The position numbers and the translations under genes were made by a program. Below are positions 56,399 through 60,693 of a DNA stretch of 64,000 nt, piece by piece. Within the stretch, counting starts at the first letter, position 1; the number at the start of each line of letters is the position of its first letter. The notes under the pieces were generated by a model. It ran no database searches. It was not told the origin of the DNA and saw only the letters and a list, made by a program, of their open reading frames with translations. The stretch lies in the NCBI RefSeq assembly GCF_053078305.1, contig NZ_CP166879.1; one strand, given 5' to 3'.

Positions 56399-56731
56399 TT
56401 GTGATTTTGACATTGGTCTATGCGCTCCATTCACGAAAATTGCGCGGATAATTATTTTGTGAAGGCTATTATCCTACACCTGTAAGAAAATCCGCGCACA
56501 ATTGAAGCCAGAGTCTTATTTTTTATATTAAAAAATATGTTAATTTAAACACTATGAGAGATGATGCTTACCTTATCGTATTTAATCTATTGTTTAACGA
56601 TAATAGATTAAAAATAGAAAGAGAGTAGTCCCCTACTCTTATATATCCATGTTGGCGATAATCCCTTTGTATGTACTGTGCATCATCGCTATTACAAATC
56701 CTAATAATTCATTTCCACACAGGATAAGTAG

Positions 56732-59011
56732 ATGAAGAAAAAAATTGAATCCTACCAGGGAGCTGCCGGTGGTTGGGGTGCTGTTAAATCCGTAGCGAAT
56801 GCAGTACGTAAGCAGATGGATATACGCCAGGATGTTATTGCCATGTTTGACATGAATAAGCCAGAGGGCTTTGACTGTCCGGGTTGTGCATGGCCAGATC
56901 CTAAGCACAGTGCGTCATTCGACATTTGTGAAAACGGCGCAAAAGCAATCGCCTGGGAAGTCACGGATAAGCAGGTAAACGCCTCTTTCTTTGCTGAGAA
57001 TACGGTTCAATCATTACTTACCTGGGGAGACCACGAGCTTGAGGCTGCGGGGCGACTCACTCAGCCTTTGAAATATGATGCCGTCAGCGACTGTTACAAG
57101 CCATTAAGCTGGCAACAAGCTTTCGATGAAATTGGCGCACGCCTTCAAAGCTATAGTGATCCCAATCAGGTTGAATTCTATACTTCGGGCCGCACTTCCA
57201 ATGAGGCTGCCTTTCTTTATCAGCTTTTTGCCCGTGAATACGGGAGCAATAACTTTCCCGACTGCTCCAACATGTGCCATGAACCGACAAGCGTGGGTTT
57301 GGCAGCGAGTATCGGTGTAGGTAAAGGGACCGTGTTGCTGGAAGACTTTGAGAAGTGCGATTTAGTCATTTGCATTGGGCATAACCCTGGTACAAACCAC
57401 CCTCGCATGCTGACTTCGTTGCGCGCTTTAGTGAAACGGGGAGCGAAAATGATCGCCATCAATCCTCTACAGGAACGTGGCCTGGAGCGATTTACTGCAC
57501 CGCAAAACCCGTTTGAAATGCTGACGAACTCTGAGACTCAGTTGGACAGTGCCTACTATAACGTGCGCATTGGTGGTGATATGGCGTTGCTCAAGGGGAT
57601 GATGCGCCTGTTAATTGAGCGCGATGATGCTGCAAGCGCCGCAGGTCGGCCCTCATTGCTGGATGACGAATTTATTCAAACGCATACCGTCGGCTTTGAC
57701 GAGCTACGCCGTGACGTTCTCAATTCCGAGTGGAAAGATATCGAACGTATTTCTGGATTAAGTCAGACTCAAATCGCCGAACTGGCTGATGCATATGCCG
57801 CTGCCGAACGAACCATTATCTGTTACGGAATGGGGATCACTCAGCACGAACATGGTACCCAGAATGTACAGCAACTGGTCAATCTGCTGTTGATGAAAGG
57901 TAACATTGGCAAGCCTGGTGCGGGTATCTGCCCACTACGTGGCCACTCTAATGTACAGGGCGACCGAACCGTCGGTATCACCGAGAAACCGTCTGCAGAG
58001 TTTCTGGCTCGCCTGGGTGAGCGCTATGGCTTCACACCACCTCAAGCACCTGGACATGCTGCAATTGCCAGCATGCAAGCAATATGTACAGGGCAGGCTC
58101 GAGCATTGATCTGCATGGGGGGCAACTTTGCACTGGCAATGCCAGATCGGGAAGCGAGCGCTGTACCGTTAACGCAATTAGATCTGGCGGTACACGTAGC
58201 CACTAAGCTTAACCGCTCTCATCTGCTGACCGCACGGCATAGCTATATTCTGCCGGTTCTGGGACGTAGCGAGATTGACATGCAAAAAAGCGGTGCGCAG
58301 GCGGTAACCGTTGAGGATTCAATGTCGATGATTCATGCCTCGCGTGGCGTGTTAAAACCCGCCGGTGTAATGCTGAAATCAGAGTGTGCAGTGGTCGCGG
58401 GAATCGCGCAGGCAGCACTACCCCAGAGCGTGGTAGCCTGGGAGTATCTGGTGGAAGATTATGATCGCATTCGCAATGACATTGAAGCTGTGCTGCCAGA
58501 GTTCGCCGATTATAACCAGCGCATCCGACATCCTGGTGGTTTTCACCTGATAAACGCTGCTGCTGAAAGGCGCTGGATGACTCAGTCAGGTAAGGCTAAT
58601 TTCATTACCAGCAAAGGGCTGTTAGAAGATCCCTCTTCAGCGTTTAACAGTAAGCTGGTCATGGCGACAGTACGCAGCCACGATCAGTACAACACGACGA
58701 TTTATGGTATGGATGATCGCTATCGAGGGGTATTCGGTCAACGAGATGTGGTCTTTATGAGTGCTAAACAAGCTAAAATTTGCCGTGTAAAAAACGGCGA
58801 AAGAGTTAATCTTATTGCGCTTACGCCAGACGGTAAGCGCAGCTCACGCCGCATGGATAGATTAAAAGTGGTCATTTACCCTATGGCTGACCGCTCACTG
58901 GTGACCTATTTTCCAGAATCGAATCACATGCTAACACTTGATAACCACGATCCATTAAGTGGCATTCCTGGCTATAAAAGTATTCCGGTTGAATTAGAAC
59001 CATCAAATTAA
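56732..59011 (+). CDS. ydeP: Molybdopterin oxidoreductase (formate dehydrogenase-like) involved in acid resistance
   Basis: 759-aa ORF. Confidence 0.9.
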
Positions 59012-59024
59012 TGCCTCTTCTCAT

Positions 59025-59055
59025 TTCTTCTGCTGTCATCCGCACAGCAGAAGAA
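59025..59055 (+). terminator. Terminator hairpin after ydeP
   Basis: 12-bp inverted repeat TTCTTCTGCTGT/ACAGCAGAAGAA. Confidence 0.45.
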
Positions 59056-59258
59056 TTCCTCATTGACTATTATCGCGCAATTTGCTCACATGGATTAAAT
59101 TAAACTACATACTATAAGATATAAACTTCTGCCTACAGCTGTAAGAAACTCCGCTCAGTACTGAAGCACCAGTCCTATTTCCTCTTTTCTCCAGCCTGTT
59201 ATATTAAGCATACTGATTAACGATTTTTAACGTTATCCGCTAAATAAACATATTTGAA

Positions 59259-59456
59259 ATGCATGCGACCACAGTGAAAAACAAAATCACGCAAAGAGAC
59301 AACTATAAAGAAATCATGTCTGTAATTGTGGTTGTCTTATTACTGACCCTTACGTTGATAGCCATTTTTTCGGCAATTGATCAGCTGGGCATTTCAGAAA
59401 TGGGTCGCATTGCAAGAGATCTTACACATTTCATTATCAATAGTTTGCAAGACTGA
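59259..59456 (+). CDS. safA: 65-aa membrane protein SafA (sensor-associated factor linking EvgS to PhoQ)
   Basis: 65-aa single-TM ORF directly upstream of ydeO. Confidence 0.85.
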   Translation: MHATTVKNKITQRDNYKEIMSVIVVVLLLTLTLIAIFSAIDQLGISEMGRIARDLTHFIINSLQD

Positions 59457-59530
59457 AAATAAACAGCAAATTATAAATATGAAATGTTAAAAAAGTATCG
59501 ATAAAAACTTTATTGTTTTAAGGAGATAAA

Positions 59531-60292
59531 ATGTCGCTCGTTTGTTCTGTTATATTTATTCATCATGCCTTCAACGCTAACATTTTAGATAAAGATTACG
59601 CCTTCTCTGACGGCGAGATCCTGATGGTAGATAACGCTGTTCGTACGCATTTTGAACCTTATGAGCGGCATTTTAAAGAAATCGGATTTAATGAACATAC
59701 CATTAAAAAATATCTACAATGCACTAACATCCAGACAGTGACGGTGCCTGTTCCTGCGAAGTTTTTACGTGCTTCAAATGTACCGACTGGATTGCTTAAT
59801 GAAATGATTGCTTATCTCAACTCGGAAGAACGCAATCATCATAATTTTTCAGAACTTTTGCTTTTTTCTTGCCTGTCTATATTTGCCGCATGCAAAGGTT
59901 TCATTACACTATTAACTAACGGTGTGCTATCCGTTTCCGGGAAAGTGAGAAATATTGTCAACATGAAGCTGGCGCACCCATGGAAGCTGAAAGATATTTG
60001 TGACTGCCTGTACATCAGTGAAAGCCTGTTGAAGAAAAAACTAAAGCAAGAGCAAACGACATTCTCACAGATTCTATTAGATGCCAGAATGCAGCACGCA
60101 AAAAATTTGATACGCGTAGAAGGTTCAGTCAATAAAATTGCCGAACAATGTGGTTATGCCAGTACATCTTATTTTATTTATGCGTTCCGCAAACATTTCG
60201 GCAACAGTCCGAAGAGAGTTTCTAAGGAGTATCGTTGTCAAAGGCACACGGGTATGAACACGGGCAACACGATGAATGCTTTAGCTATTTGA
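59531..60292 (+). CDS. ydeO: AraC-family acid-resistance regulator
   Basis: 253-aa ORF with C-terminal AraC HTH. Confidence 0.9.
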   Translation: MSLVCSVIFIHHAFNANILDKDYAFSDGEILMVDNAVRTHFEPYERHFKEIGFNEHTIKKYLQCTNIQTVTVPVPAKFLRASNVPTGLLNEMIAYLNSEERNHHNFSELLLFSCLSIFAACKGFITLLTNGVLSVSGKVRNIVNMKLAHPWKLKDICDCLYISESLLKKKLKQEQTTFSQILLDARMQHAKNLIRVEGSVNKIAEQCGYASTSYFIYAFRKHFGNSPKRVSKEYRCQRHTGMNTGNTMNALAI

Positions 60293-60693
60293 TTATTTGC
60301 TAACGAGTAGTCAACCACACACGCTACGTAAGAATTAAATGGGGCAGCCATTCCCTGCCCCGCGTTGTTTTTAGGCGATAGATTTATTGAAATAAATAAG
60401 TGACATTCATCACATATTTATGCATTTGCATAACCTGTTGCATGATTATTTATGATCTCAATTCGGCATTTTGTCAGTAAAATACAATAATTTATTAAAT
60501 ATCAATAGATTAGTTGTTTATCGGCGAGAAATTACTTAGTAGAACAGAAAGTAATGTCAACGCTTTATGGACTGTTATTTCCCTTTTTTTAGCTAAATCT
60601 GCTATCTCTTTATGTGACTAACTTCACTTACATCCACTTATTTCTCTTCGTAAAATTACTTTGGAATTAAGTACAATAAGAAGAGGAACATTT

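Follow-up and report, generated by a model that had tools for sequence, protein, structure and literature searches.

Two EvgA-dependent transcription units very probably make up the ydeP-safA-ydeO acid-resistance locus of Escherichia coli

Gene content and conservation of the locus

Positions 56399 to 60693 of the window (the whole 64-kb stretch of DNA analyzed here) carry ydeP, safA, and ydeO, together with four spacers:

56399-56731, + strand: ydeQ-ydeP spacer (333 bp, GC 0.327), carrying the promoter and long 5' leader of ydeP
56732-59011, + strand: ydeP, FdhF-like molybdopterin oxidoreductase, 759 aa (GC 0.500; NF007406)
59012-59258, + strand: ydeP-safA spacer (247 bp, GC 0.368), with the ydeP 3' hairpin and the safA-ydeO promoter
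59259-59456, + strand: safA, intact 65-aa membrane connector from EvgS/EvgA to PhoQ/PhoP (PF17073)
59457-59530, + strand: safA-ydeO spacer (74 bp, GC 0.176), without a terminator-like site
59531-60292, + strand: ydeO, AraC/XylS-family regulator, 253 aa (GC 0.396; NF007407)
60293-60693, + strand: ydeO-ydeN spacer (401 bp, GC 0.322), holding the terminator of ydeO and the regulatory region of ydeN

Curated models match the products full length, confirming the three genes that the first-pass annotation had named at these positions. YdeP scores 1830.2 bits against the NCBIfam equivalog NF007406 (cutoff, 1473; residues 1 to 759 of 759); YdeO, in which AraC-type HTH domains were found, scores 603.8 bits against the NCBIfam equivalog NF007407 (cutoff, 348; residues 1 to 253 of 253); and SafA scores 160.3 bits against Pfam PF17073 (cutoff, 27; residues 1 to 65 of the 66-position model). 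SafA had also been described as an intact 65-aa connector, and so it is: its ORF is uninterrupted, its hydrophobic stretch, IVVVLLLTLTLIAIFSAI, is consistent with a single helix, and its length agrees with the published 65 residues (PMC9496106). It differs from K-12 SafA at three residues (A22V, S44G, and G65D) and shows no differences from the RefSeq-annotated allele of strain CFSAN061761.

The locus is collinear with b1501-b1499 of K-12 MG1655 (ydeP b1501, safA b1500, and ydeO b1499; NC_000913.3, 1582926-1586486): gene order, strand relations, gene lengths, and all four spacer lengths are equal, nucleotide identity across the three genes is 97.5 to 98.6%, and YdeP and YdeO each carry four amino acid changes. 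The stretch was found in 5,394 of 5,426 complete E. coli genomes, and among complete RefSeq E. coli genomes no identity over the span exceeded 99.6%. A scan of genome contigs with YdeO, a single-protein query that reaches close relatives only, yielded three loci, all on Escherichia-derived contigs; two of them are E. coli-like contigs within metagenome bins. According to published work, SafA and EvgAS occur only in E. coli and Shigella (PMC9496106).

EvgA boxes upstream of ydeP and safA

We searched for the EvgA box as an 18-bp inverted repeat, TTCYTACA-N2-TGTARGAA; this consensus, attributed to Masuda and Church, 2003, was validated indirectly on other promoters of the regulon. In K-12, the motif also marks emrK/evgA, frc, and yfdX (four matches in 19 kb versus 0.26 expected), as well as the yegR promoter. 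With at most one mismatch allowed, the whole 64 kb holds exactly two matches (chance, 0.02), which lie in the ydeQ-ydeP and ydeP-safA spacers:

56471-56488, no strand: predicted EvgA box of ydeP, ATCCTACACCTGTAAGAA, 18-bp inverted repeat, one mismatch to TTCYTACANNTGTARGAA
59130-59147, no strand: predicted EvgA box of safA-ydeO, TGCCTACAGCTGTAAGAA, 18-bp inverted repeat, one mismatch

The box centers lie 252.5 bp before the ydeP ATG and 120.5 bp before the safA ATG. K-12 has an identical safA box and keeps the ydeP box with two mismatches (AGCC... versus ATCC... here); therefore, the ydeP allele described here is one base nearer the consensus. Both boxes are also kept in a divergent Escherichia locus (L007) that has the three genes but lacks both flanking gene sets, even though nucleotide identity in ydeP falls to 88% there.

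Each of the two promoters has a single convergent pair of half-sites, and none of the regions contains a direct-repeat arrangement; the expectation of EvgA direct-repeat sites was thus not borne out, the site being an inverted repeat. Such sites had been anticipated in three upstream regions, which holds for the ydeQ-ydeP and ydeP-safA spacers but fails for 60293-60693, where we found no EvgA box even at three mismatches and only one lone half-site, in line with a background of 1.2 per kb. Judged by their sequence, the ydeP and safA boxes are EvgA-type sites. Published work shows that EvgA binds the safA-ydeO promoter directly (PMC9496106), that activated EvgA strongly upregulates the ydeP promoter (PMC4283999), and that ydeO induction fails when evgA is mutated (PMC4222967).

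Promoter architecture

The promoter regions of ydeP and safA contain a pair of paralogous segments and several core promoter elements:

56473-56570, + strand: 98-bp segment with the EvgA box and core promoter of ydeP, paralogous by alignment to 59132-59229
59132-59229, + strand: safA counterpart of the ydeP promoter segment
56502-56529, + strand: σ70 promoter-like TTGAAG-16-TATATT for ydeP
56538-56546, + strand: extended −10-like element (TGnTAWWTT) in the ydeP segment, TGTTAATTT, counterpart of TGTTATATT
59197-59205, + strand: extended −10-like element (TGnTAWWTT) in the safA segment, TGTTATATT

The similarity of the two segments, which emerged from pairwise alignment and an ungapped scan and was not reported by the repeat search, amounts to 66% ungapped identity over 98 bp and about 80% across the first 50 bp; its score of 32 compares with 10.2 ± 1.2 (maximum, 14) in 300 shuffles. 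L007 retains the TGnTAWWTT element of each segment. There are three candidate core promoters for ydeP; the TTGAAG-16-TATATT sequence is the same as a "constitutive" ydeP promoter listed by RNAP-holoenzyme SELEX, with H-NS among its regulators (PMC3946193). An ORF of 24 codons that starts at 56554 (ATG), within the ydeP leader, was rejected as a gene because in K-12 and L007 it stops after 5 codons.

When six EvgA-box promoters were compared, 10 columns were conserved in fixed register after the box, versus 1.5 ± 1.2 expected; the distance from box to start codon ranges from 106 to 260 bp across regulon promoters.

Transcript ends and the safA-ydeO unit

Two stable hairpins follow ydeP and ydeO:

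59025-59055, + strand: hairpin right after the ydeP stop, 13 predicted pairs, no U-run (−17.5 kcal/mol; z = −4.65)
60340-60372, + strand: intrinsic terminator of safA-ydeO, GGGGCAG...CTGCCCC plus T-run (−19.4 kcal/mol)

The first probably forms the 3' end or the terminator of ydeP; in L007 its stem is kept and its loop is changed, and the safA-ydeO terminator is kept as well. As expected of an operon, safA and ydeO are separated by 74 bp that lack a terminator-like site, and the intrinsic terminator lies past ydeO. This agrees with published descriptions of ydeO as the second gene of a safA-ydeO operon (PMC9496106; bioRxiv 10.64898/2026.05.06.723403), whose safA promoter is under feedback from PhoP and YdeO (bioRxiv 10.64898/2026.05.06.723403). 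An Rfam scan of 55000-64000 (E ≤ 1) gave only subthreshold chance matches, none of them in the spacers of interest: OxyS (23 bits; threshold, 75) and isrK (20 bits; threshold, 50).

The ydeO-ydeN spacer

The third long AT-rich region, 60293-60693, is the regulatory region of the sulfatase operon ydeN-ydeM and does not lie upstream of any of the three genes. Its features are the following:

60399-60414, no strand: CRP-like site, AGTGACATTCATCACA; core kept in L007 and K-12, 6-bp spacer varies
60471-60498, + strand: TTGTCA-16-TATTAA promoter, assigned to ydeN by published RNAP-SELEX (PMC3946193)
60613-60628, no strand: second CRP-like site, TGTGACTAACTTCACT, abutting CTTACA-18-TAAAAT
60627-60656, + strand: promoter-like CTTACA-18-TAAAAT, found by scan

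The second CRP-like site and CTTACA-18-TAAAAT may form a class II geometry for ydeN; the spacer belongs to ydeN and probably answers to CRP. L007, which has neither ydeN nor ydeM, shares only the first ~175 bp of the spacer. A weak family of 24-nt direct repeats in this spacer (75% identity) was treated as chance.

Base composition and H-NS

The three long spacers rank among the lowest 1.6% (ydeQ-ydeP), 5.6% (ydeP-safA), and 0.8% (ydeO-ydeN) of same-length windows in GC content, against 0.4825 for the window, 0.445 for ydeQ, and 0.442 for ydeN; their AT skew, (A−T)/(A+T), is near zero (−0.04 to −0.07). The lowest-GC 100-bp stretch in the whole window (GC 0.18) starts at 56517, inside the ydeQ-ydeP spacer, and GC is about 0.20 across 59405-59575. 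Genes contribute to this pattern too: safA (GC 0.379) and ydeO (0.396) are nearly as AT-rich as the ydeP-safA spacer, and both, like ydeN and ydeM, fall well under the window average. The first-pass annotation had placed 250 to 400 bp of AT-rich sequence before each gene. The three spacers, their lengths, and their AT-richness are correct; the scheme fails for ydeO, whose own upstream spacer is 74 bp and which has the third region at its 3' side. Likewise, the contrast with flanking genes holds up quantitatively but does not set these spacers apart: the same degree of AT-richness (GC 0.32 to 0.35) is seen in unrelated spacers elsewhere in the window, such as 13716-14107 (0.321), 41965-42494 (0.317), and 39092-39339 (0.335), and at the 100-bp scale ≤26% GC is reached at ten other places.

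Because ordinary spacers match these values, AT-richness alone does not show the xenogeneic silencing that had been proposed, although AT content clearly exceeds the window average, as expected of H-NS-silenced acquired DNA, for the spacers (GC 0.18 to 0.37) and for safA and ydeO (0.38 to 0.40), with ydeP at 0.50. With up to two mismatches allowed, the H-NS high-affinity motif TCGATAAATT had no matches in the ydeQ-ydeP and ydeP-safA spacers, two in the 74-bp spacer, and six in the ydeO-ydeN spacer. Since such matches mostly track AT content, we did not take them as evidence of silencing, and their absence from the first two spacers means that the EvgA promoters carry no specific sequence signal for H-NS beyond AT-richness. 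A published "promoter island" maps to about 59340-59666 here, covering the safA-ydeO spacer, in a conversion that assumes an offset of 1976 bp between U00096.2 and U00096.3. This 327-bp island at ydeO/safA has dense promoter-like signals and is H-NS bound (PMC3661553, Table 1). Published work reports both binding and occupancy: H-NS prefers ydeP and ydeO promoter fragments in gel shifts (PMC2984483), and ydeO/safA was occupied by H-NS in all ChIP-chip data sets and is predicted to be of foreign origin (PMC3661553, Table 1).

Interpretation of the locus

We conclude with high confidence that this stretch represents the standard ydeP/safA-ydeO acid-resistance locus of E. coli, organized as two EvgA-dependent transcription units. 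It is very improbable that EvgA instead activates a separate upstream region for each of the three genes, 60293-60693 then being part of an acid-resistance regulatory island. That region is AT-rich and adjoins ydeO, but on the coding strand it follows the 3' end of ydeO, opens with the ydeO terminator, offers a lone half-site at background density in place of an EvgA box, and contains the SELEX promoter assigned to ydeN (PMC3946193); moreover, its distal two-thirds are replaced in L007, where the trio persists without ydeN and ydeM, and YdeO ChIP-chip reported no site there (PMC4222967). We also give a low probability to the reading in which these are ordinary spacers, housing promoters and terminators as elsewhere in E. 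coli, with a composition that reflects normal promoter architecture rather than xenogeneic silencing. The comparably AT-rich places elsewhere in the window, the genome-average GC of ydeP, the near universality of the locus in E. coli, and the absence of H-NS motif matches from the two EvgA-box spacers would fit such an origin; H-NS binding in vitro to fragments bearing the ydeP and ydeO promoters (PMC2984483), its ChIP-chip occupancy of ydeO/safA together with the foreign-gene predictions (PMC3661553), the low GC of safA, ydeO, ydeN, and ydeM, and the restriction of SafA and EvgAS to E. coli and Shigella (PMC9496106) argue against it.

Doubtful, too, is the view that ydeO has one or more EvgA-independent promoters of its own within the very AT-rich stretch that runs from the 3' half of safA through the 74-bp spacer, so that safA-ydeO would not be a simple operon. 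The extreme composition of this stretch, the island of promoter-like signals that spans it (PMC3661553), and the mention of a ydeO 5' leader in a CsrA study (PMC11210196) are in its favor, but our promoter scan of 59340-59530 found no site scoring ≥9/12, promoter islands are reported to be transcriptionally silent (PMC3661553), the evgA mutant fails to induce ydeO (PMC4222967), and the literature handles safA-ydeO as a single operon.

On the favored two-unit arrangement, each unit would consist of one 18-bp EvgA box with a weak core promoter at a fixed distance after it. At mildly acidic pH, EvgS would phosphorylate EvgA, a dimer of which would bind each box, recruit RNA polymerase, and overcome H-NS repression of the AT-rich DNA. 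The first unit would produce the YdeP oxidoreductase; the second, one mRNA ending at 60340-60372, would encode SafA, which activates PhoQ, and YdeO, which turns on gadE and the GAD system. The third AT-rich region serves separate control of ydeN-ydeM, with its own σ70 promoter and CRP-like sites. This model takes gene identities, the boxes and their uniqueness, composition, terminators, and conservation from our analysis and relies on the literature for activation by EvgA, H-NS binding, the structure of the operon, and the repression exerted by PhoP and YdeO; we infer the exact transcription start sites and promoter geometry.

The locus and its control by EvgA and H-NS are already known, textbook E. 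coli acid resistance, so the result matters little past correct annotation: the EvgA-controlled transcription units are two, not three, and their EvgA sites are inverted repeats. The fixed-register architecture of the six EvgA promoters and the ydeP/safA duplication do offer a testable handle on the contact between EvgA and RNA polymerase.

Comparison with known systems

The acid fitness island (slp-gadX region, gadE, hdeAB, and gadA) is also AT-rich and H-NS repressed and is reached through the EvgA-YdeO-GadE cascade (PMC2984483, PMC4222967). It occupies a different chromosomal locus; ydeP-safA-ydeO is the upstream regulatory tier and lies outside that island.

Within the EvgA regulon, the emrKY, evgAS, frc/yfdW, yfdX, and yegR promoters have the same 18-bp inverted repeat as ydeP and safA and share bases after the box: CA at +9/+10, AA at +12/+13, and TCnnATT at +26 to +32. 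Extended similarity over 98 bp occurs only between ydeP and safA, which points to a duplicated promoter segment. The TCYTAT element, at +26 after the box, lies 42 bp, or four helical turns, past the first half-site. Speculatively, the ydeP and safA promoters could be copies of one ~100-bp EvgA-dependent cassette, and TCYTAT could be a second positioned element of all EvgA promoters, a low-affinity EvgA half-site in place of or besides a −10, with several dimers assembling toward RNA polymerase as for BvgA; we offer this combined proposal as a tentative one that is rather unlikely to hold in full.

Bordetella BvgAS is the closest relative of EvgAS. BvgA is a NarL/FixJ-type response regulator that binds an inverted, heptad-like repeat, with a weak core promoter located downstream, and BvgA-activated promoters resemble those of EvgA in all three respects: regulator type, inverted repeat, and weak core promoter. 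At BvgA promoters, a high-affinity site is joined by cooperative low-affinity sites that reach the −35 region; the candidate equivalent at EvgA promoters is TCYTAT.

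Identity of the locus

An ORF listing and comparison with E. coli K-12 MG1655 place six genes on the plus strand, and curated models match the products of three over their full length:

55484-63585, +, ydeQ, ydeP, safA, ydeO, ydeN, and ydeM together
56732-59011, +, ydeP; YdeP matches NF007406 full-length (1830 bits; cutoff, 1473)
59259-59456, +, safA; SafA matches PF17073 full-length (160 bits; cutoff, 27)
59531-60292, +, ydeO; YdeO matches NF007407 full-length (604 bits; cutoff, 348)
60694-62376, +, ydeN (ORF listing and K-12 comparison)

The order matches NC_000913.3 1580842-1587734 (collinear, in reverse orientation), and gene lengths and spacers (333, 247, 74, and 401 bp) are all the same as in K-12; ydeP, safA, and ydeO are 97.5 to 98.6% identical to K-12 at the nucleotide level. 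Thus, the first-pass annotation named ydeP-safA-ydeO correctly. Its 65-aa SafA is indeed intact, encoded by an uninterrupted ORF; three residues separate the protein from K-12 SafA, and it is the same as the RefSeq-annotated allele of strain CFSAN061761. Of 5426 complete E. coli genomes, 5394 carry the 4.3-kb span; the best match is 99.6% identical.

Elsewhere in the window, a 1806-aa autotransporter ORF is intact that is frameshifted in CFSAN061761, the closest complete genome, and the window lacks an ∼17-kb island (integrases, an ABC-three-component system, and IS elements) that CFSAN061761 carries between hipA and ydeT. Window positions 42495-47915 and ∼49715-53215 were compared with positions 3533-21158 of the locus L003.

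Two EvgA-controlled units

The EvgA site reportedly described by Masuda and Church in 2003 is an 18-bp inverted repeat, TTCYTACA-N2-TGTARGAA. At ≤3 mismatches, it occurs exactly twice in the window:

56471-56488, EvgA box of ydeP, 252.5 bp before the ydeP ATG, 1 mismatch
59130-59147, EvgA box of safA, 120.5 bp before the safA ATG, 1 mismatch

Chance expectation at ≤1 mismatch is 0.02, and two matches were seen in none of 100 shuffles. We checked this consensus independently by scanning K-12 at other operons of the EvgA regulon, which yielded 4 matches in 19 kb versus 0.26 expected: one in the emrK/evgA spacer, a perfect one upstream of frc, and two upstream of yfdX. The consensus also matches upstream of yegR. 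The first-pass annotation had suggested looking for direct-repeat EvgA sites in three upstream regions; half-sites in the ydeP and safA promoters form a convergent pair only, and a half-site search revealed no direct-repeat arrangement. Sites do lie upstream of ydeP and of safA, whereas the ydeO-ydeN spacer has no box at ≤3 mismatches and a single isolated half-site, matching the background density of 1.2 per kb.

This last spacer (60293-60693) had been taken for an upstream region of the trio, but it lies 3′ of ydeO on the coding strand and contains a terminator and a ydeN promoter:

60340-60372, intrinsic terminator opening the spacer, −19.4 kcal/mol
60399-60414, CRP-like site (TGTGA-N6-TCACA, 1 mismatch), kept in the divergent Escherichia locus L007, where its 6-bp spacer varies
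60471-60498, TTGTCA-16-TATTAA, the same sequence as the published ydeN promoter
60613-60628, second CRP-like site (TGTGA-N6-TCACA, 1 mismatch), abutting promoter-like CTTACA-18-TAAAAT

TTGTCA-16-TATTAA is listed as the ydeN promoter by RNAP-holoenzyme SELEX (PMC3946193). The window has five CRP-like sites; this spacer holds two, and we infer a class II geometry for ydeN from the second of these together with CTTACA-18-TAAAAT. Nor does ydeO have a long upstream region of its own: only 74 bp precede it, without a terminator-like site, and safA-ydeO is reported to be a single EvgA-activated operon (PMC9496106; bioRxiv 10.64898/2026.05.06.723403). Therefore, EvgA controls two units rather than three. 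The original proposal that EvgA acts on ydeP and on safA-ydeO holds: each unit is preceded by a box, in agreement with the literature.

Base composition

The claim that the three spacers are AT-rich relative to flanking genes holds quantitatively, because their GC contents of 0.327 (56399-56731), 0.368 (59012-59258), and 0.322 (60293-60693) rank within the lowest 1.6, 5.6, and 0.8%, respectively, of all windows of equal length; for comparison, GC is 0.4825 for the whole window, 0.500 for ydeP, 0.445 for ydeQ, and 0.442 for ydeN. Such AT-richness is not distinctive: in an approximate gene map, other spacers in the window also have a GC of 0.32 to 0.35, and 3 of 13 places with ≤26% GC at the 100-bp scale lie within the ydeP-safA-ydeO span. 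As genes, safA (0.379) and ydeO (0.396) are AT-rich; ydeP is not. The sharpest trough of the second unit, overlooked at first, covers the 3′ half of safA together with the 74 bp between safA and ydeO (spacer GC, 0.176).

With its coordinates converted by an assembly offset, a published "promoter island" would fall at 59340-59666 (3′ half of safA, 74-bp spacer, and start of ydeO). This stretch matches the island described at ydeO/safA, for which H-NS binding and a predicted foreign origin are reported (PMC3661553). Within it, two H-NS-motif-like matches are paired around a central TCGA (59492-59507).

Promoter anatomy

Over 98 bp (56473-56570 versus 59132-59229), the promoters of ydeP and safA align without gaps at 66% identity, rising to ∼80% in the first 50 bp; the alignment scores 32 versus 10.2 ± 1.2 (maximum, 14) in shuffles, and this likeness points to a duplicated promoter segment. 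No extended similarity to it was found among the other EvgA promoters examined. When six EvgA promoters (ydeP, safA, frc, yfdX, emrK, and yegR) were aligned on the box and read toward the gene, 10 columns in the following 40 nt were conserved in at least five of six (C9, A10, A12, A13, G19, T26, C27, A30, T31, and T32). Rotation controls gave 1.5 ± 1.2 such columns and reached 10 in 0 of 5000; leaving out safA, the paralogue of ydeP, P was 0.004. In this fixed register, which in the window occupies 56489-56520 and 59148-59179, the conserved bases are CA (+9/+10), AA (+12/+13), G (+19), and TCnnATT (+26 to +32).

Read most simply, this alignment reflects a weak core promoter held at a constant distance from the box, with a degenerate −35 ending in CA and, at +29 to +34, a −10 resembling TATTTT or TATTTC, which would put candidate starts near 56529 (ydeP) and 59188 (safA). 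A half-site-like TCYTAT starts 42 bp beyond the first half-site and may serve as a −10 region or as a secondary EvgA site. Other candidate core promoters are as follows:

56502-56529, TTGAAG-16-TATATT, a SELEX promoter, for ydeP
56538-56546 and 59197-59205, TGnTAWWTT, a conserved extended −10-like element

The putative ∼200-nt ydeP 5′ leader (56529-56731) folds at −41.3 kcal/mol (z = −3.3), with a 14-bp hairpin at ∼56581-56612 and an 8-bp hairpin at ∼56621-56640; large parts of it are conserved in L007.

Comparison with other loci and known regulation

YdeO used as a query against one genome per species returned three loci. L007 (labeled E. coli SCPM-O-B-8794; rearranged or diverged parts at 2700-2870, 5730-5921, and 6763-8957) retains ydeP (87.7% nucleotide identity), safA, ydeO (89.5%), and both EvgA boxes. 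On its left flank the fimbrial ydeQRS genes are deleted, with a fusion of ydeS (5′ end) to ydeQ (3′ end) in their place; on its right, ydeN and ydeM are absent and yddA directly follows ydeO. The ydeO-ydeN spacer is common to L007 over its first ∼175 bp only (the terminator and first CRP-like site). The absence of both flanking gene sets and of most of this spacer argues that the trio can be separated, as a unit, from either flank and that most of the spacer travels with ydeN. Between the box and +100, L007 is 88% (ydeP) and 80% (safA) identical, versus 75 and 70% for the entire spacers. L007 SafA (63 aa) is strongly diverged, while YdeO is still 93% identical. Near-identical E. coli ydeO contigs also occur in an "uncultured bacterium" bin (L005) and a "Candidatus Nanosynbacter" MAG (L006), and are probably contaminants.

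H-NS silencing and EvgA activation at ydeP-safA-ydeO rest on published work. Competitive gel shifts show preferential binding of H-NS to fragments of the ydeP and ydeO promoters (PMC2984483), and ydeO/safA is H-NS-occupied in every ChIP-chip data set and foreign by four prediction methods (PMC3661553). EvgA activation lifts the ydeP promoter from a very low level (PMC4283999); an evgA mutant shows no ydeO induction, and YdeO ChIP-chip revealed no site at the locus (PMC4222967). The safA promoter is under negative feedback from PhoP and YdeO (bioRxiv 10.64898/2026.05.06.723403), and CsrA binding is reported for the leader of ydeO but not for that of ydeP (PMC11210196). The ydeP-safA-ydeO system and its control by EvgA are therefore already known.
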